DNA of 64,000 nucleotides from Escherichia phage vB_EcoP_PE006: sequence record OQ938541.1. The stretch is one strand, 5' to 3'. How positions within the stretch are numbered: position 1 is the stretch's first letter; every line of letters begins with the position of its first letter. Below are positions 3,729 to 63,318 of the stretch, in pieces. The notes under the pieces were generated by a model that saw only the letters and a list, made by a program, of their open reading frames with translations, did no database searches and was not told where the DNA came from. A program made the translations under genes and the position numbers.

Positions 3729-3758
3729 AAGCTGCCTTCGGGTGGCTTTTCTTGTTTT
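3729..3758 (+). terminator. rho-independent terminator after capsid gene
   Basis: AAGCUGCC-UUCG-GGUGGCUU stem-loop (with G-U pairs) followed by UUCUUGUUUU. Confidence 0.6.
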
Positions 3759-3780
3759 AAGACCTATACAAGCTAGTGTG

Positions 3781-3789
3781 TAATGTATA
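3781..3789 (+). promoter_or_regulatory. TAATGTATA promoter-like element
   Basis: Exact TAATGTATA 34 nt upstream of the ATG at 3823, just downstream of the terminator. Confidence 0.45.
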
Positions 3790-19108: not shown

Positions 19109-20788
19109 ATGCAACAGACAACTTACGCTCAGGTCAGAAGTCGTGACCCGAGAAATACTTTCTATGGTGTTAATCCGGGAGCGGCTTCGGCCTCTCCTTA
19201 TATGGCTAGACCTACTCAGACAGCGGATGTTTCTATGTACCAGCGTCCTGCTGTACCTTCATCTCTCGCAGGTCTTGTCTCTCAGGCAGAAGAAGATCAG
19301 AATGCTATGGTGAATCCGGGATTCCAGCAACGTCTTATGGAACAACAGAATCAAGGAACCCCAACAAGTCTTCAGGGTATTGACATTGGAGCACCAGCCC
19401 CTGTAGCAGCTAATCCTAATTTATCTACTGATCAAGGTTTGCAGGATGCTGGACTTATGCCTAGTGACCCTCTTCCGGTGACACCTCCTGCCAAGCCACT
19501 AGAAACTGGTCCTATGGAGTTTACTCCTTCTCAGGTTGAACAAGCACAAGGTGTTGTTAATACTCTTGCTCAAGGACAAGACACTGGTGACGGAATGGCT
19601 GCTGCTACTCGTACTAAAGATCAAGAGCGTGTTAACAATGATATCTTGCAAGTTGCAAAAGCTAAAGATCCTTCAGAAGCTTGGAAGAAGTTACAGAAAG
19701 AACCTTTCTATCAGAACTCTAGTTTCTATACAGGTTTAATGGGTGTAGGTCTTTCTATCATGTCAGGTAAATCTCCTATCGAAGCATTCCAGATTGGTCA
19801 GGGGATGGCTAATCAAGATGAGACTAAAAAGCAACTGGAAGCTAACCGTGATGCTCTGATTGAACAAGGTTTCTCTCAAGACTCAATTGCAGCTGCTATT
19901 GCTCAGGGTGATCCATCTCTTCTGAAGATGAAAGCTAAAGACCCTCTTCAACAGGAAGATCTGTATGCTGCTCGTGAAGAACGTCAGAATGCTGAGTGGG
20001 ATAGACGTCAAGCTATCAATGAAGAATCTGCTGAGAGAAACCGTAAGGCTACTTTGGAAAATCAGTTAGCTCTGGCGGAAGCGCGTGGTGAGATTACTCG
20101 CGACAACCTTTTGTTCAAGAAGGATCACAATGTTCGTAGAACATCTCCTAAGTGGGAAAAATCAGAGGAGCTTGGTGGTATTACCCCTAACTTACGAGAT
20201 AAGTTACAGCAATCTTATCGTCCTGTTATTAATGTCCTAGCTTCTCGAAACAAGTGGATGGCTCCTACAGAAGCTGCTATTTCTAAATTAGGAACTGGTG
20301 CAAACTCTCAAGAGAACTCAGCTCAGCAACGTGCTGCTATTGAGAACTTGACTAAACTTATTCAGGGTGGTTTAGCTTCTATTAACGGAGAAGTTATGAA
20401 TGAGCTTACAGGTGATCCAGATTGGGTTAACAACAAGTTGAACAAGATTCAGATGATGGCAGGTCAAGGCCCAACCGAAGCAAATATCAAGTGGCTTAAA
20501 GCACTCGGTACAGAGATTCAAGAGATTGATAAAGAGGCAACTAAATACCAAGTAGCCCCTCTAGTAGAATCTTTGATTCTTGACAGCGGTTTGGCTCCTG
20601 AAAATGCTATTAGAGCTGCTAACTCTATTTTTGCTCCTGGCTCTGTTCGACTCACTACTGAAGAGTTTAAAGAATGGTCTCGTGGACACAGTAAAGTTCA
20701 TGATAAAACATTCCCTGATGACAAGCCTCCTAAATTGAAGGGTGGTGCTTTATCCGATTCTTCAGATACTAGCTGGTTCACTCAATAA
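19109..20788 (+). CDS. hypothetical virion protein
   Basis: 559-aa ORF with TTAGGAG SD in the structural operon. Confidence 0.5.
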   Translation: MQQTTYAQVRSRDPRNTFYGVNPGAASASPYMARPTQTADVSMYQRPAVPSSLAGLVSQAEEDQNAMVNPGFQQRLMEQQNQGTPTSLQGIDIGAPAPVAANPNLSTDQGLQDAGLMPSDPLPVTPPAKPLETGPMEFTPSQVEQAQGVVNTLAQGQDTGDGMAAATRTKDQERVNNDILQVAKAKDPSEAWKKLQKEPFYQNSSFYTGLMGVGLSIMSGKSPIEAFQIGQGMANQDETKKQLEANRDALIEQGFSQDSIAAAIAQGDPSLLKMKAKDPLQQEDLYAAREERQNAEWDRRQAINEESAERNRKATLENQLALAEARGEITRDNLLFKKDHNVRRTSPKWEKSEELGGITPNLRDKLQQSYRPVINVLASRNKWMAPTEAAISKLGTGANSQENSAQQRAAIENLTKLIQGGLASINGEVMNELTGDPDWVNNKLNKIQMMAGQGPTEANIKWLKALGTEIQEIDKEATKYQVAPLVESLILDSGLAPENAIRAANSIFAPGSVRLTTEEFKEWSRGHSKVHDKTFPDDKPPKLKGGALSDSSDTSWFTQ

Positions 20789-20808
20789 GACCTAAGTCCT
20801 GCCTTCTA

Positions 20809-20817
20809 TAATGTATA
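20809..20817 (+). promoter_or_regulatory. TAATGTATA promoter-like element
   Basis: Exact TAATGTATA 39 nt upstream of the ATG at 20856. Confidence 0.45.
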
Positions 20818-27817: not shown

Positions 27818-29101
<1,284 letters not shown>

Positions 29102-29348: not shown

Positions 29349-29372
29349 GAAAAAAGCCACCCGAAGGTGGCT
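29349..29372 (-). terminator. rho-independent terminator after SSB gene
   Basis: - strand AGCCACC-UUCG-GGUGGCU followed by UUUUU. Confidence 0.55.
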
Positions 29373-29393: not shown

Positions 29394-30140
29394 TCAGAAT
29401 GGGCTGTCGTTGTCATCTTCATAAGTAGAAGCAGGCTCTTTATCAATCGTAGGGATTGAAGGAGTAGCTTCTTTCTGCTCTGTTTCAGAAGCACGAGTAA
29501 TTTCACGACCAGCCAGAGGCATGTTCTTAGCGTCGTTAGCTTGAGTAAGCAGGTTGCGCTGGAACGGGAACATCAGTTGATAGGATGCTACGTTCTCATC
29601 GGTTTCAGCATACGGTTCGAAGAATACCAGAGGACTACGAGCTTCACCAACTGCTGCACGATATTTGGTTGGGATTGGAGAAATGGTTTTGATGGAGTTT
29701 TTAACTTCACCAGCTTTATTAGTGTAAGAGTTAACCAGAATGTTGACAGGCTGACCTAACAGTACATCCTTAAACCAAGACAGATCACCTTTCAGTGCTT
29801 GAATGCTTGGGTCAATCATCTTGCAGAGATCAAGGATACCAGAGTTCTTAGCTCGTGGGTTTACATCATAGCTCTTGAACTGGCAAGCAGGACGTGGTTC
29901 TAATGCCTTACCATCGGAATCTTTACCAGTAGCATCAACACCAATCAGCTCGAAAGCCAAATCCATACGGAAAGCTGGATTCTTAGGAGTTACTGCTTTG
30001 GTCTTCGGGTCAATCCAAGGGTCACGATTGTGAACACCCAAACCTACTACACGAACAATACGTGCTTCGTACTCACCATCAGGGATGATGTCGTAGTTGG
30101 ATTTACGGGAAGAGGTTGCGATAGTTGGAATCATAGACAT
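29394..30140 (-). CDS. ssb: single-stranded DNA-binding protein
   Basis: 248 aa ending in acidic tail ...TYEDDNDSPF (D-rich with terminal F, as in SSB C-termini). Confidence 0.65.
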   Translation of the reverse strand: MSMIPTIATSSRKSNYDIIPDGEYEARIVRVVGLGVHNRDPWIDPKTKAVTPKNPAFRMDLAFELIGVDATGKDSDGKALEPRPACQFKSYDVNPRAKNSGILDLCKMIDPSIQALKGDLSWFKDVLLGQPVNILVNSYTNKAGEVKNSIKTISPIPTKYRAAVGEARSPLVFFEPYAETDENVASYQLMFPFQRNLLTQANDAKNMPLAGREITRASETEQKEATPSIPTIDKEPASTYEDDNDSPF

Positions 30141-30199
30141 ATTTTAATTTCCTTATTTAATTTGAAAGATTGTTGCTCTCTTTGAGCGGTTATGTATAG

Positions 30200-30208
30200 T
30201 ATACATTA
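30200..30208 (-). promoter_or_regulatory. TAATGTATA promoter-like element (- strand) upstream of ssb
   Basis: Reverse complement of tatacatta at 30200-30208, ~60 nt upstream of the ssb start. Confidence 0.4.
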
Positions 30209-30271
30209 CGCTTATACCGATAAGAGTACTATGTAATATAAGTATCTTTGGTAGTAGATATAACACACTAG

Positions 30272-30280
30272 TAATGTATA
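30272..30280 (+). promoter_or_regulatory. TAATGTATA element on the opposite strand (antisense/divergent)
   Basis: Exact TAATGTATA on + strand in a region with only - strand genes. Confidence 0.3.
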
Positions 30281-30369
30281 TATTGTATAGCTGATAAAGT
30301 TATTGCAGGCTTGTATATTGGGCAATTCACAGAATCCCTTGCAAGTACCGAAGGGCAGGAGCCACCTGC

Positions 30370-30441
30370 GAGATAAAAATAGAGAATTAAGGAATCCTTG
30401 ATTTAGGTTGTAGGGACTCCTAGGGACTTTGATTCTCTATT
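30370..30441 (-). terminator. long inverted repeat, terminator-like on - strand
   Basis: AATAGAGAAT (30378-30387) / ATTCTCTATT (30432-30441) 10-bp stem enclosing 44 nt; U-rich run follows on the - strand. Confidence 0.4.
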
Positions 30442-30534
30442 TAAAAGAATATTAATTACTTACTTAAAACCAATTCAAAAAGAGAATAGCTAAAAGAACT
30501 ATTCCTAGTAAAGCTAAGAAGTAAATGATATAAG

Positions 30535-30762
30535 TTACCATTCAAGTAAACCTTTAAAGTTAGACTGTTCTACTATCCTCTGATAACGAAGATTAGAATC
30601 AGCTTGTTTCTTTAACATCTCATTATATTGGTCTCTGATAGAGTCTTTATAAACTACAGGTTCTTTAAATAATGAGATCTTCTTTTCTTCAGAGTTAGAT
30701 AGTACATCCGTCACAAATGAAATCCCCACTAAGTGATTCTTGTAACAAGCGACTCTGTTCAT
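30535..30762 (-). CDS. hypothetical protein
   Basis: 75-aa ORF; overlaps the next ORF in another frame. Confidence 0.3.
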   Translation of the reverse strand: MNRVACYKNHLVGISFVTDVLSNSEEKKISLFKEPVVYKDSIRDQYNEMLKKQADSNLRYQRIVEQSNFKGLLEW

Positions 30763-30889
30763 CAGAGACTAATTGATTCACCACTTTCTGTAGTTCTAAT
30801 AAATCATCAAAATCGATCATCATGCCTTCATCAAGCTTATCAGTATCAACAGACCAAAAAGGATTATCTCCTAGTATTTTACTAATCAT
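30695..30889 (-). CDS. hypothetical acidic protein
   Basis: 64-aa ORF, D/E-rich. Confidence 0.3.
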   Translation of the reverse strand: MISKILGDNPFWSVDTDKLDEGMMIDFDDLLELQKVVNQLVSDEQSRLLQESLSGDFICDGCTI

Positions 30890-31109
30890 TCTACATCCCC
30901 TCTCACTTCAGCGTCTTTTGAATCTTCACTTGAGTATTTATCAATATATTCCATTTTTACCCCTATTAATTATGACCAAGATTTAGCTTTTACTTCAACA
31001 TATGTTTTAACTTCACCTTTCAAGACCTCCTGAGAAGCATTTGCACTTTCTTCAGAGTGGTGTACAACGGTGATCTCTTTCTTTCCAATCTTATAAGTGT
31101 GAATCCAAA

Positions 31110-32589: not shown

Positions 32590-33196
32590 CATTTATGTTA
32601 TTCCCAAATTACTTCGGGTATCGGACTATATCATAACAGCATAGCTAATTTGCTGTTGTTGGCGCTTCGAGGGTTTCCCTGTTAACCCCCTACTCCCGCA
32701 GGATAGTCTCTACACTTTCCACTTTCGAATCCATCTACAAGCGATTCCAAAGCTCACACCAAATCTTTCTGCAAGAGCAACACCAGTACATTCATTATTA
32801 AGCCAGAACTCTTTAGCAGCATCCTGTCTTTCTCTGTTTCTACCAGTATTTGATTCTATGGCATGTGCACTACCTTCTAATATCTCTAGATGATCAGTGT
32901 TACAACATGCCCTATTCTTGCATTTGTGATTAACTTCGTAGCCGTCAGGAATACTTCCAAACTTCTCTTCCATGACATACCTATGATACATGACCCATTT
33001 GCCATTTATCACTTTTCGAAAGTAGCCATCTTTATTTAATTTGTGTGAGATAGGGATGATACATCCTGTGCTAGTTGTTTCTAGCACTAGATCTTTCTTA
33101 GCCATATCACCTCCTAATAGCTTAGCTCGGTATTGCCCTCAACTTAATGGTCGGGTTTCACCGAGTTCACCAACTTTTACATGCACAATGAAGTTT
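32590..33196 (-). mobile_element. group I intron in the DNA polymerase gene
   Basis: Exon ends ...AUGCAU with U at the splice site; intron nt 11-16 GUGCAU can pair with it (P1, U-G wobble); AGACUA (32704-32709) and GAUAUAGUCC (32623-32632) match P7 strands; terminal G before exon 2. Confidence 0.7.
32710..33105 (-). CDS. intron-encoded HNH homing endonuclease
   Basis: Own SD (AGGAGG); YEVNHKCKNRACCNTDHLE HNH core; lies inside the intron. Confidence 0.75.
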   Translation of the reverse strand: MAKKDLVLETTSTGCIIPISHKLNKDGYFRKVINGKWVMYHRYVMEEKFGSIPDGYEVNHKCKNRACCNTDHLEILEGSAHAIESNTGRNRERQDAAKEFWLNNECTGVALAERFGVSFGIACRWIRKWKV

Positions 33197-34888
33197 ATGC
33201 ATATCAATTACCTTAGCACAGCGAACCCCATCTTTCTCAATCCACTTGTTAAGGAACATCATAGCATATTTCATAACAACAGCACCAGCACATTGCAGGA
33301 GAGTGTTAAGTGCTTTATGAACCATAACTTTACCAGTGGCATCTCGTCTCATTGTAATCTTACGACCATCAACACCAATCAAGTACCCTTGAGCAGCTTT
33401 CTCTGTCATACGATCAATGAGGATTGCAATACATGGGTTCTCTGCCAAGAAACGTGCTCGCATCACTGAACCTTCGTCAGCCCCACCACCTACAATTGAA
33501 CCGAGCTTGGCATCACCAGCACCATAGTTGAATGCGTAGATAAATGTCTTAGCGTTGTCACGAGTAGGAAGACCAGCAAGTTTCTGGTTGTGGGAGTGGA
33601 TATCACCTTCAAGGAGAATATCACGATACATAATAGCAGAAGCTAAACCACGCTCTGCCAGAGCTTTCTTAGCTGGATTATTCTCTTCGATTGCTTCAGC
33701 AAGCATATCCCTACACTCTTTAATGAGGTAGTGTGCAAGCATACGCAATTCTAATCCAGAACCATCATACCCTAAGAATACTTCTTTACCAGCGGGTATG
33801 TAATATTTGTAAGCACCTACAGGTTTGTCTTTCTTCCCCGGCTTACCTTTCTCATAAATTACGTTAGTACCTTTTCGTATATAACAACCATCAGGAACAA
33901 CGTTAGTAATAACGAAAGGACGAGAGTGATCATCATCTGAGTTATAGTCAGATTCAAACAAACTGCGACACTCGTGACCAAACAAACCACGGGAGGGAAT
34001 ATTAACCACGATACGATGTTTGAATCGAAAAGTCGGCGTAGCGCAGCTGTTAGCTTCTGCCGAAAGTTTACCATCTTCGCGTTCCTTTGCTATGAGTCCA
34101 CTAATAAGACCTAGCCTGTGAGCCGCTACAACGCGTCTCTTAAGCAAACTTCCGACACTCCCTAGCTCACCCCCTAACCCTTCTTCAAGAGTCTCCTCGA
34201 GGTTTGTAGGAGCTGTAGGCCACTTGTTTGAGGTAGCTAGTGCTATCTTAATCTCATCAAAAGTGATAGGTCTACGTCGGTTAGGATTTAAACCTAAACC
34301 AAATACATAAGCCTTCATATAGTTCTTAGTCTTAAACCTAAAATGCTTCTCTAAGAACTTCCTAATATCAGCGTCAACCATCTCGGCTGTCTGCTTCTGT
34401 TTAGCATTACCTCGCATCCAAGCTGAATACCATGCTTGGTATGTTCCATACTTTCGCATATCTTTCTTGATTTCAAAAGTATTCCAAGGCTTCTTAGATA
34501 CGTTAAACTCTGGAGGAAGAAAGCCCTCATCCATAAGGGCTTCTTTAACTCGTGCATCTTTCGATGGGTCAAAGTCCACGTATTCAACACAGGTGAATGC
34601 TCCACCAATGTCTTCTCTCTTAAGACCAACTCTATCACAATAGGCTTGAGGCCACTTCTGTAAAGCTCCAGACTTCTTAAATGGCTTCATATAAGTAGAG
34701 CCATCTAATCTCATCTTAGGTAAGAGAGGAATCAGTTCTTTGTCAATATTAACAATAATCTCTTTAAGGAGGTGAACATACCACCGAGCATTTCTTCGGT
34801 TGAAACTCACTCCGTGCTTCGCTTGCTTAGAGATTATATCAGCGACAGTCATCTCTGTCAAAAATGGGAGAGCGTCCGGGTTGCTCAC
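33197..34888 (-). CDS. family-A DNA polymerase, exon 1 (polymerase domain only)
   Basis: GTG start with AAAGGAG SD; motif A LGYDGSGLELRMLAH; motif B RDNAKTFIYAFNYGAG; no 3'-5' exo motifs at the N-terminus. Confidence 0.85.
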
Positions 34889-36456: not shown

Positions 36457-36465
36457 TATACATTA
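36457..36465 (-). promoter_or_regulatory. TAATGTATA promoter-like element (- strand)
   Basis: Reverse complement of tatacatta at 36457-36465, 37 nt upstream of the ATG at 36420. Confidence 0.45.
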
Positions 36466-36474
36466 TGGATGCTA

Positions 36475-36723
36475 TTAAAACTCTGCTAAGTATTTAATAT
36501 CAGAGGCATATACCTCATCAAAGGAAATAGGCTCTCCGTTGTAAAGAAGTTCTATCTTCAATATACCAGAGCATTTGGTGTCTTTAGAATCAACTCTGAT
36601 AGAGAGTTTATCAACTATCTGAGCTTTAATCTCTTCTATTACCAACTCTTGAGTGTTATTCACTCCACCCTCCCGGTGGCACAAAATCATCAGGAACGTC
36701 AATGATAGTAGGTTCTCCATCAT
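36475..36723 (-). CDS. hypothetical protein
   Basis: 82-aa ORF. Confidence 0.3.
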   Translation of the reverse strand: MMENLLSLTFLMILCHREGGVNNTQELVIEEIKAQIVDKLSIRVDSKDTKCSGILKIELLYNGEPISFDEVYASDIKYLAEF

Positions 36724-41473: not shown

Positions 41474-41512
41474 AACTCTCTCCTGTAAAATACAAATTCT
41501 TATTGTACTCTA

Positions 41513-41521
41513 TATACATTT
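41513..41521 (-). promoter_or_regulatory. AAATGTATA promoter-like variant (- strand)
   Basis: Reverse complement of tatacattt, ~40 nt upstream of the ATG at 41473. Confidence 0.3.
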
Positions 41522-41545
41522 GAGAGTTACCATATCTACTACCAA

Positions 41546-63056: not shown

Positions 63057-63318
63057 TAGCTACTCGCAAGTCTTCATTAGCACGAGCAAGGCGCAACACT
63101 TCATGATTGAGATTCTGAAGACGCTTGTTTCTGTCCTCTACTTGCATAATAAGATCGTTAAGAGTTGCTTTAACTTTCTCATTATACATCTCATCCACTC
63201 GGACTAGGGACTTATACATTCTCTCCCAGCTTGCTGCTTTGTTTCTAAGGATAATAAATCCTATAACGCTGATAGTTAAACAGCTTACAAAAAGGAATTT
63301 ATATACTTCTAAAGTCAT
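63022..63318 (-). CDS. membrane-anchored coiled-coil protein
   Basis: N-terminal TM (LFVSCLTISVIGFIIL) followed by helical region. Confidence 0.35.
   Translation of the reverse strand: MTLEVYKFLFVSCLTISVIGFIILRNKAASWERMYKSLVRVDEMYNEKVKATLNDLIMQVEDRNKRLQNLNHEVLRLARANEDLRVAIAKQQEINSES

Follow-up and report, generated by a model that had tools for sequence, protein, structure and literature searches.

A candidate seventh gp36 promoter and a predicted structured RNA beside the ssb-like gene of phiEco32-like phages

Introduction

Why would a phage maintain a promoter motif that opposes every gene around it? This question is raised by an AT-rich region in front of the ssb-like gene of Escherichia phage vB_EcoP_PE006, located at positions 30141-30534 of a 64,000-nucleotide (nt) stretch of the sequence record OQ938541.1, which was analysed as a whole and is here called the window. 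The region contains two copies of the motif TAATGTATA on opposite strands and a long inverted repeat. A preliminary description made from the letters alone read it as a junction of terminator and promoter, and possibly also as a replication origin or as the source of an antisense or non-coding RNA.

The window belongs to a phiEco32-like phage (Kuravirus group), and over the 1.9 kb around the region it shares 92-95% identity with phiEco32, SU10 and some 95 further records of this group. The motif TAATGTATA is the published promoter element of the phage sigma factor gp36 (PMC8948821; PMC4281155). Promoters that depend on gp36 are read by the host RNA polymerase carrying gp36 and have a single consensus element (PMC8948821), tAATGTAtA, in which AATG occupies positions -14 to -11 (PMC8948821; PMC12276001). 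Six such promoters have been published, P6, P13, P26, P40, P58 and P68 (PMC8948821), and the published lists name each of them after the gene that it precedes. P68 served as the template for the open-complex structure of gp36 and gp79 in a cryo-electron microscopy study from 2025, in which the C-terminal domain of gp36 was found to read the -35 region, with R187 contacting -37G and Y186 contacting the T opposite -34A; mutating these -37G/-34A contacts abolishes activity (PMC12276001).

Our best explanation, to which we assign a probability of roughly 60% on the basis of sequence comparison, is that the region holds a divergent promoter pair, and that the plus-strand member, which we call asP, produces a non-coding RNA that is structured, measures about 155 nt and ends at a long hairpin, H3. 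The P40 half of the region is already known, and it is the plus-strand promoter and the predicted RNA that are new.

Results

A candidate plus-strand promoter with the layout of P68

The two copies of TAATGTATA are situated at 30200-30208 on the minus strand and at 30272-30280 on the plus strand, exactly as first described. The motif is strongly overrepresented, with five exact copies in the window against 0.79 expected, a number that was reached in none of 100 shuffles. On the plus strand, the copy is part of a -10-type box, TAATGTATATA (30272-30282), with a predicted transcript start at A30287, and is preceded by a -35 box, TGGTAGTAGAT (30249-30259), and by a spacer of fixed length and free sequence (30260-30271). 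In the numbering given by the predicted start, the two boxes of asP extend from -38 to -28 and from -15 to -5. This is also the layout of P68, the homolog of which is located at 41511-41544 on the minus strand: in both promoters, TGGTAGTAGAT is followed by 13 nt and then by AATGTATATA, and both the boxes and the spacing of the published promoter are thereby duplicated in asP.

The resemblance to P68 is specific. The 11-mer TGGTAGTAGAT has exactly two exact copies in the 64 kb, the other one being upstream of the P68 homolog, and at both sites its offset to AATG is 24 nt. Likewise, the combined pattern TGGTAGTAGAT-N13-AATGTATATA, with up to three mismatches allowed, matches only asP and the P68 homolog in the 64 kb, whereas zero matches are expected and none was found in shuffled sequences. 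The bases -37G and -34A are supplied by TGGTAG in P68, and their counterparts in asP, G30250 and A30253, are identical bases at identical offsets when counted back from AATG.

All neighbouring genes are on the other strand and no conserved open reading frame (ORF) is found downstream of asP, which thus does not stand in front of a gene. Two small plus-strand ORFs, of 32 and 21 amino acids, were considered and rejected; they are not conserved, since the lineages swap the middle domain of the predicted RNA. We also considered a sigma-70 reading of the plus-strand site, where TAGATA-18-TATATT scores 9 of 12, and rejected it because three such sites were found against 3.2 expected, which is chance level. 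The promoter asP is missing from the six published gp36 promoters and from the publications that we found, and the primary phiEco32 papers (Savalia 2008, Pavlova 2012) may mention the site; the literature found makes no mention of the plus strand, of an antisense RNA or of an origin in phiEco32-type phages. Taken as a whole, the comparative evidence makes asP a well-supported candidate for a seventh gp36 promoter, making a conserved non-coding RNA. In a coding region on the minus strand (63205-63220), AATGTATA is directly followed by AGTCCCTAG, the repeat unit of H3, which is probably due to chance.

The upstream regions of the gp36 promoters can be sorted into classes, judging from the sites at 3752-3789 and 20780-20817 on the plus strand and at 30200-30237 and 36457-36494 on the minus strand. 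The late-promoter homologs P13 and P26 have TAAGACCTA in common at -38 to -30, the middle promoters P40 and P58 have TAG(T/C)A in common at -38 to -34, and P68 and the orphan promoter have TGGTAGTAGAT in common. An A at -34 is present in all gp36 promoters compared, and P40 carries an A at -37 in addition to the A at -34. These classes may underlie the middle-versus-late timing of the promoters.

Conservation of the promoter and its limits among relatives

To describe the conservation we used an alignment of 18 phages, sampled evenly down the similarity ranking and covering three genera, for which mean pairwise identities are given, and a wider set of 30 related sequences for the promoter boxes and the 5' hairpin. 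The -35 box of asP is 99% identical, and the -10 stretch (30272-30286) is 94% identical with 12 of its 15 columns invariant, the box TAATGTATATA itself being the same in all 18 phages. In contrast, the 12-nt spacer between the boxes is 54% identical without a single invariant column, and the flanking coding DNA is 77-79% identical. Both boxes are conserved in the 30 related sequences, with the spacer free to vary, and of the 17 phage loci aligned, 16 show the two-box pattern exactly, ES17 having one change in the -35 box. This selective conservation looks like the footprint of a promoter.

The ES17-type phages carry an insertion of about 120 nt between asP and P40. Since the two elements are separated by this insertion, asP is not merely the upstream part of P40. 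In ES17 itself (L014, positions 682-825) and in L039, L053, L055, L056, L058 and L059, the inserted segment carries an ORF of 47 amino acids between the divergent promoters.

A search with the ssb-like protein returned a graded series of homologs, and the element is also carried by five distant metagenomic contigs (L061, L063, L065, L066 and L067) in which this protein is 71-81% identical; TGGTAGT and an AATG-type box are kept in all five, with an offset of 23-24 nt. On the plus strand, conservation extends from the -35 box at 30249 to the last base of H3 at 30442/3, after which identity drops to about 60%, and these limits fit the boundaries of a plus-strand transcription unit. In 7-11, GAP52, Privateer and LAh_9, as well as in two relatives with an SSB identity of 67-69%, L044 and L064, the ssb homolog is not preceded by the element. 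Furthermore, when viral contigs were scanned with an exact 16-mer and metagenomes with a 19-base pattern, all matches came from the phiEco32 group or were due to chance. Judging from these sequences, the element is limited to the phiEco32 group. Two Logan assemblies with SSB identities of 75% and 65%, L062 (1-200) and L068 (1-203), stop some 200 nt short of the ssb homolog on its upstream side; these breaks beside the position of the core described below may reflect branching of the assembly graph at a sequence common to co-occurring phages.

Structure of the predicted RNA

The predicted plus-strand RNA begins with a 17-nt hairpin, H1 (30287-30303; AUAGCU-GAUAA-AGUUAU). Across the 30 sequences, H1 has ten sequence versions with four unrelated stems (AUAGCU/AGYUAU, AGAGUUA/UAACUCU, AUCUCU/AGAGRU and ACAUC/GAUGU), and in every version the whole segment between the predicted +1 and a conserved UGCA is one hairpin. 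The commonest version requires a G.U pair and folds on the plus strand alone, the minus-strand equivalent having an energy of 0.0 kcal/mol. That pairing and position are kept while the bases are free argues for a transcribed RNA with the predicted 5' end and against a protein-binding palindrome. The covarying hairpin at the predicted +1 and the conservation of the two boxes provide strong comparative support for the early suggestion that the plus-strand copy of TAATGTATA is the promoter of an antisense or non-coding RNA.

H1 is followed by a variable middle domain (30304-30351, plus strand), which is of type A in the window and of types B, C and D in other lineages, and which has been swapped wholesale at least four times. 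The hairpin in the type-C middle domain of distant relatives shows two compensatory pairs, from C-G to G-C and from U-A to C-G.

The remainder of the predicted RNA belongs to a core of 92 nt (30352-30443), which consists of a small hairpin (GCAGG), a linker rich in A and the 66-nt hairpin that contains the inverted repeat. The core has a mean pairwise identity of 97-98% among the 18 phages, and its identity to the window is still 89-95% in the five distant relatives, compared to 68-77% at the DNA level for their ssb gene. In the small hairpin (30355-30369, plus strand; GCAGG-AGCCA-CCUGC), which belongs to a segment with 98% identity, the middle pair is changed from A-U to U-A in L061 (GCUGG/CCAGC), and the loop is AGCCA or AGACA. 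A long-range helix, UUGCAGG/CCUGCGA, which appears in the minimum-energy and consensus folds of type A, was rejected because the changes in L061 compensate in the local hairpin and break the long-range pairing.

The 66-nt hairpin, H3 (30377-30442), has a stem of 16 base pairs as plus-strand RNA (30377-30392 with 30427-30442). The perfect inverted repeat of 10 base pairs originally noted here (30378-30387 and 30432-30441) is indeed present, and it extends to arms of 14 nt (30377-30390 and 30429-30442) that are 93% complementary, with 38 nt between them. The interior contains two TAGGGACT repeats, at 30411-30418 and 30421-30428, both of which lose one G together in one lineage, and H3 is 97% identical including its interior. 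On either strand the hairpin has significant stability, with a z-score of -3.1 on the plus strand and of -3.7 (-18.2 kcal/mol) on the minus strand, and the plus-strand fold beats the minus-strand fold in all 12 variants. The minus-strand fold loses about 4 kcal/mol with each of three point changes tolerated in H3, namely an extra A in SU7, A to G in XT32 and A to T in L059; for the plus-strand fold, the changes in SU7 and L059 are approximately neutral and the one in XT32 costs about 3 kcal/mol. The evidence for H3 thus leans to the plus strand, and we consider that the hairpin probably serves both strands.

The view that the repeat is a terminator was sustained in part. On the minus strand, just after the upstream gene, the repeat is followed by TTTTTAT (30370-30376; UUUUUAU as RNA), which is invariant in all sequences. 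However, an intrinsic terminator would have a G+C-rich stem of some 5-14 base pairs and a loop of only 3-8 nt, whereas the stem here (AAAUAGAGAAU/AUUCUCUAUUU) has only two G-C pairs and encloses 38 nt, and a consensus terminator scan of 29900-30800 called none. With its AU-rich stem, its invariant interior of 38 nt and the negative scan, H3 is not a canonical terminator.

Beyond H3, a strongly AT-rich stretch (30443-30630) extends over gene 41 and into the 3' end of the next gene. The segment 30431-30630 has a GC content of 0.27 and is the second lowest 200-bp stretch in the 64 kb, and the kilobase 30001-31000 is the lowest in the window (0.34), in agreement with the AT-richness first ascribed to the region. 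In all 18 phages, the 100 nt past H3 have a GC content of 0.18-0.27, with at least three clearly different sequence versions there.

Searches for a function of the predicted RNA

A search of the whole window against Rfam 15 at gathering thresholds gave no matches. With relaxed thresholds, the segment 30100-30600 gave only CRISPR-DR47 (16.5 bits, E 2.5) and DUF2815 RNA, both far below threshold, and a scan for tRNA and tmRNA genes found none. Neither a 164-nt version of the RNA nor the core has similarity to E. coli genomes and plasmids, and the predicted RNA is therefore neither a sequence-detectable mimic of a host RNA nor a plasmid origin. In a crude scan for targets in trans with RNAduplex, covering 203 translation start regions, the best energy was equal to the mean of shuffled queries. 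We also considered AGTCCCTA as a dispersed binding motif; the genome contains four copies against 1.7 expected, and the idea was ruled out by this lack of enrichment. With regard to targets in cis, an RNA ending at H3 overlaps no coding sequence, and the gene to which any read-through past H3 would be antisense varies with the lineage, being gene 41, gp40.1 of LAMP or the phosphoesterase gene.

P40 and the flanking genes

The suggestion that the minus-strand copy of TAATGTATA serves the ssb-like gene is borne out by published work, in which this copy is the gp36-dependent middle promoter of gene 40. In the SU10 genome paper, a "middle promoter between CDS37 and CDS38" is given as aagcgtaatgtatactatacataaccgctcaaagagagcaa (PMC4281155), and since this 41-nt sequence is identical to 30212..30172 on the minus strand of the window (PMC4281155 Table S2), the exact match at 30200-30208 is P40. 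This promoter is listed as P40/P37 (PMC8948821 Table S3; PMC4281155 Table S2), and its element is invariant in the 18 aligned phages (100% identity). The transcript is predicted to start at about 30193, 14 nt past the first A of AATG (numbering of PMC12276001). The predicted 5' untranslated region is a 52-nt leader (30141-30193, minus strand) with 89% identity, which contains a conserved small hairpin, GCUC-AAAGA-GAGC (30175-30187), and the ribosome-binding site AAGGAAA. The weak Rfam match to DUF2815 RNA is located in this leader (30138-30179, minus strand; 15.2 bits and E 6.1, the gathering score being 41.2) and falls mainly on the region of ribosome binding.

The ssb-like gene (29394-30140, minus strand) is the homolog of phiEco32 gene 40 in the ORF list, is transcribed from P40, and is 92-95% identical at the DNA level to its counterparts in phiEco32-group phages. 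Its product has no matches in Pfam and no sequence matches in the Protein Data Bank (PDB). An AlphaFold model built from 22 homologs has a mean confidence score (pLDDT) of 81, and its top structural matches are single-stranded DNA-binding proteins with an oligonucleotide-binding (OB) fold, PrgE (8s4s, E 7e-4) followed by SSB, PriB and RPA. The protein also has an acidic, SSB-like C-terminal tail (...DDNDSPF). The label ssb, which is based on fold and tail rather than on sequence families, is thus indirect and seems reasonable. Directly 3' of the gene is a canonical terminator of a hairpin and a T-run (29355-29372, minus strand), found in the terminator scan as AGCCACCTTCGGGTGGCT followed by TTTTTCGTTG. 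With P40 in front and a canonical terminator behind, the ssb-like gene is a self-contained cassette, that is, a transcription unit of a single gene.

According to the ORF list, every gene around the region is on the minus strand. The region had been thought to be free of ORFs and to lie between converging genes, and neither view held. A homolog of gene 41, encoding a small hydrophobic peptide of 25 amino acids (PHROG 24970, E 7e-8), is encoded at 30464-30541 on the minus strand, which restricts the non-coding part to 30141-30463, and both flanking genes are arranged in tandem on the minus strand, opposed by the plus-strand motif alone. The peptide is 25 amino acids long in the window and in EcoN5 and 35 in phiEco32 because of indels, and its ATG overlaps the stop codon of the upstream ORF (ATGGTAA). 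Gene 41 is missing from Paul, XT32, EK010 and ECBP2, and LAMP has a different sequence at that place; a similar small hydrophobic ORF is present at the gene 41 position in the distant relative L066.

The region is part of the replication module, beside the ssb-like gene and with the DNA polymerase gene 3 kb upstream. The replication proteins recognised are a family A DNA polymerase, a 5'-3' exonuclease and the ssb-like protein; gp36 is encoded by the ORF at 28197-28841. The DNA polymerase ORF (33167-34888) has a perfect sigma-70 consensus promoter at its 5' end, TTGACA-17 nt-TATAAT with TG upstream (34833-34861, minus strand). Immediately downstream of the same ORF, a 131-amino-acid ORF (32710-33105, minus strand) has the look of an HNH endonuclease, and a homing endonuclease is annotated elsewhere in this gene cluster in some relatives.

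Discussion

From the motifs and their spacing, the selective conservation, the compensatory pair changes and the absence of a conserved ORF, we infer that asP fires and produces an RNA with a function of its own. The host RNA polymerase with gp36 would use P40 and asP as a back-to-back promoter pair. Leftward, P40 starts the ssb-like mRNA near 30193, which ends at the terminator at 29355-29372; rightward, transcription from asP would begin near A30287 and run counter to all neighbouring genes. The resulting RNA would be composed of the 17-nt 5' hairpin, the lineage-variable middle, the GCAGG/CCUGC hairpin with the A-rich linker, and the 66-nt hairpin (30377-30442). H3 most likely sets the 3' end, either through weak termination or because longer transcripts are trimmed to the stem, which would give about 155 nt. 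On the minus strand, H3 and TTTTTAT probably stop or stabilise transcripts of the upstream operon, and would thereby insulate the ssb cassette.

As to the role of the RNA, our guess is that it is a stable non-coding RNA of the middle phase, whose invariant single-stranded and apical sequences act on a protein or nucleic-acid partner. The invariant loop positions, including the co-changing TAGGGACT repeats, suggest that the partner is sequence-specific. The main alternative to such a partner-binding role is that the RNA primes or activates DNA replication at the site. We put forward more tentatively, and consider doubtful in this strong form, the idea that asP and its RNA constitute either the replication origin of the phiEco32-type phages (Gordonclarkvirinae) or a stable RNA of the middle phase whose invariant loops capture a factor of the host or of the phage, with asP as a seventh gp36 promoter of an essential non-coding product.

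Several observations admittedly weigh against the proposed plus-strand RNA. Past H3 the plus strand has just 3-4 U and no proper terminator (AUUUAAAA, UUUUAAAA or AUUAAAA), which leaves the predicted 3' end a guess. The interior of the core can form a good alternative helix of 8-9 base pairs, including a G.U pair, on the minus strand. The z-scores for folding of the whole RNA are modest, -1.6 to -3.3, and in two relatives the opposite strand scores better (-3.0 and -3.8). Most core positions never vary, and covariation in the core thus neither backs nor contradicts any fold, while the invariant loops are not explained by secondary structure alone. In the distant relatives, the -10 box is off consensus (AATGAATA or AATGTATT), and the metagenome contig L053 (ERZ1034915.75) has AATATATA in place of AATGTATA, a G to A change at -11 of asP; this change at a base contacted by gp36 could be a natural promoter loss or a sequencing error. 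Finally, plus-strand RNA sequencing or primer-extension data were not found in the searchable literature.

We also considered the possibility that the region is a replication origin, at which the asP transcript primes or activates DNA synthesis by opening the AT-rich stretch past H3. This explanation has the same promoter and the same RNA as the one that we favor, and differs only in the purpose of the RNA. An origin was suggested from the start, and it is compatible with the layout, in which an orphan promoter of the middle type, a structured element and an AT-rich stretch have replication genes beside them. The promoter has no gene to serve and opposes all neighbouring transcription, and its type, that of the middle promoter P68, would make it active at the time at which the replication genes are expressed. 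The location in the replication module, beside the ssb-like gene and 3 kb from the DNA polymerase gene, counts in favor of an origin, and so does the order of the promoter (30249-30282) and the AT-rich segment (30431-30630, GC 0.27). Past H3 it is the composition that is kept across the 18 phages (GC 0.18-0.27) rather than the sequence, as expected of an unwinding element. Furthermore, the family A DNA polymerase, the 5'-3' exonuclease and the ssb-like protein fit a T7-like replisome, which by analogy with T7 could start from transcripts of RNA polymerase. To our knowledge, the replication origin of the phiEco32-type phages (Gordonclarkvirinae) has not been mapped. However, the GC skew shifts only at the boundary of late and middle genes near 26 kb and not at the region, which is uninformative, and the small genes and intergenic DNA of the phage are AT-rich in general. 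Selection for RNA stability, for which a co-transcriptional primer has no obvious need, is suggested by the covarying 5' hairpin, and the element is not universal for the replication module, since it is missing in the relatives L044 and L064 and in the groups of 7-11, GAP52, Privateer and LAh_9. We regard an origin as unlikely, though the strongest of the rival explanations.

Another explanation, which we consider distinctly improbable, is that the signal belongs to the minus strand, with H3 and TTTTTAT terminating, protecting or processing the transcripts of the upstream operon (P58 through gene 41). The ssb-like gene would then be expressed from P40 alone, and the plus-strand motif would be incidental or would block read-through by head-on transcription. 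Such a function would account for the finding that H3 begins 20-35 nt past the stop codon of the upstream gene even in phages without gene 41, for the invariant T-run past H3, and for the significant stability of H3 as minus-strand RNA (-18.2 kcal/mol, z -3.7), and the canonical terminator behind the ssb-like gene fits an insulated cassette. Yet a stem rich in A and U encloses as many as 38 nt, and the scan that was negative here does find the canonical terminators of the phage elsewhere. The loops of terminators normally drift, whereas the interior of H3 is 97% conserved, and the tolerated mutations weaken the minus-strand fold and not the plus-strand fold, except for the cost of about 3 kcal/mol to the latter in XT32. 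The GCAGG, middle-domain and 5' hairpins are all downstream of the T-run and still show compensatory changes, and the conservation of two boxes around a free spacer, with a hairpin at the predicted plus-strand start, is left unexplained.

Least probable, and to our minds very unlikely, is that the core acts as DNA, either as a platform for a phage or host protein, with the two TAGGGACT repeats one helical turn apart, or as a "linker" without RNA function that has been homogenised by frequent recombination between co-infecting mosaic phages. The near invariance of 92 contiguous bases, including positions that are looped in any RNA fold, and the joint loss of one G from both repeats in one lineage are in line with an element that acts as DNA. 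The surroundings are indeed mosaic, with four types of middle domain, gene 41 present or absent and the ES17 insertion, and two independent assemblies break beside the core, as expected if it is common to diverged, co-occurring phages. On the other hand, compensatory changes in three separate helices are unexpected for protein-binding DNA, AGTCCCTA is not enriched (four copies against 1.7 expected), and the core is without similarity to E. coli genomes or plasmids. Recombination can spread the core, but its retention would still have to be explained.

The divergent pair with a non-coding transcript, which remains our preferred explanation, may be compared to known systems. With the published gp36 promoters of phiEco32 it has in common that the minus-strand element is P40 itself and that asP combines tAATGTAtA with the P68 box TGGTAGTAGAT at the identical offset of 24 nt; in contrast to these promoters, asP is outside the published six, has no gene in front of it and opposes the cluster of middle genes, and its activity is predicted. 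The OOP RNA of phage lambda is an antisense transcript of 77 nt from the promoter pO and adjoins the origin region. Like OOP, the predicted RNA is short, has its own promoter, is directed opposite to the flanking genes, ends in a hairpin and is situated beside replication functions. However, OOP overlaps cII, its target gene, at the 3' end of that gene and is provided with a proper terminator, whereas the predicted RNA overlaps no coding sequence if it ends at H3; there is no sequence or Rfam similarity between the two, and the gene beyond the predicted RNA varies by lineage.

The primary origin of T7 consists of the promoters 1.1A and 1.1B and an AT-rich region, and oriF and oriG of T4 combine a middle promoter with an unwinding element that has a persistent RNA-DNA hybrid. 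As in these RNA-primed origins, a promoter of the class active in the replication phase is here followed by an AT-rich stretch, in or near the replication genes. A difference is that a hyper-conserved, structured segment of 92 nt is placed between the promoter and the AT-rich DNA. Intrinsic and possibly bidirectional terminators resemble H3 in having an inverted repeat between an A-run and a T-run, here with TTTTTAT directly following on the minus strand, and they differ from it with regard to the AU-rich stem, the invariant 38-nt interior, the plus-strand U-run of 3-4 nt and the failure of the scan to call it.

Our findings concern a phage that serves as a model for how the host RNA polymerase is re-programmed by a sigma factor, gp36, and its co-factor gp79. 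The published promoter set has six sites that all precede genes, and a seventh site, conserved just as well and driving a non-coding RNA, would add a regulatory layer. It would also give a second natural promoter of the P68 type for structural and biochemical work. The core of the RNA evolves several times more slowly than the ssb-like gene, which makes it likely to be relevant to fitness in a phage group now being isolated widely with a view to therapy against E. coli. Should the RNA prove to be the primer of an origin, it would place the start of replication in the phiEco32-type phages.

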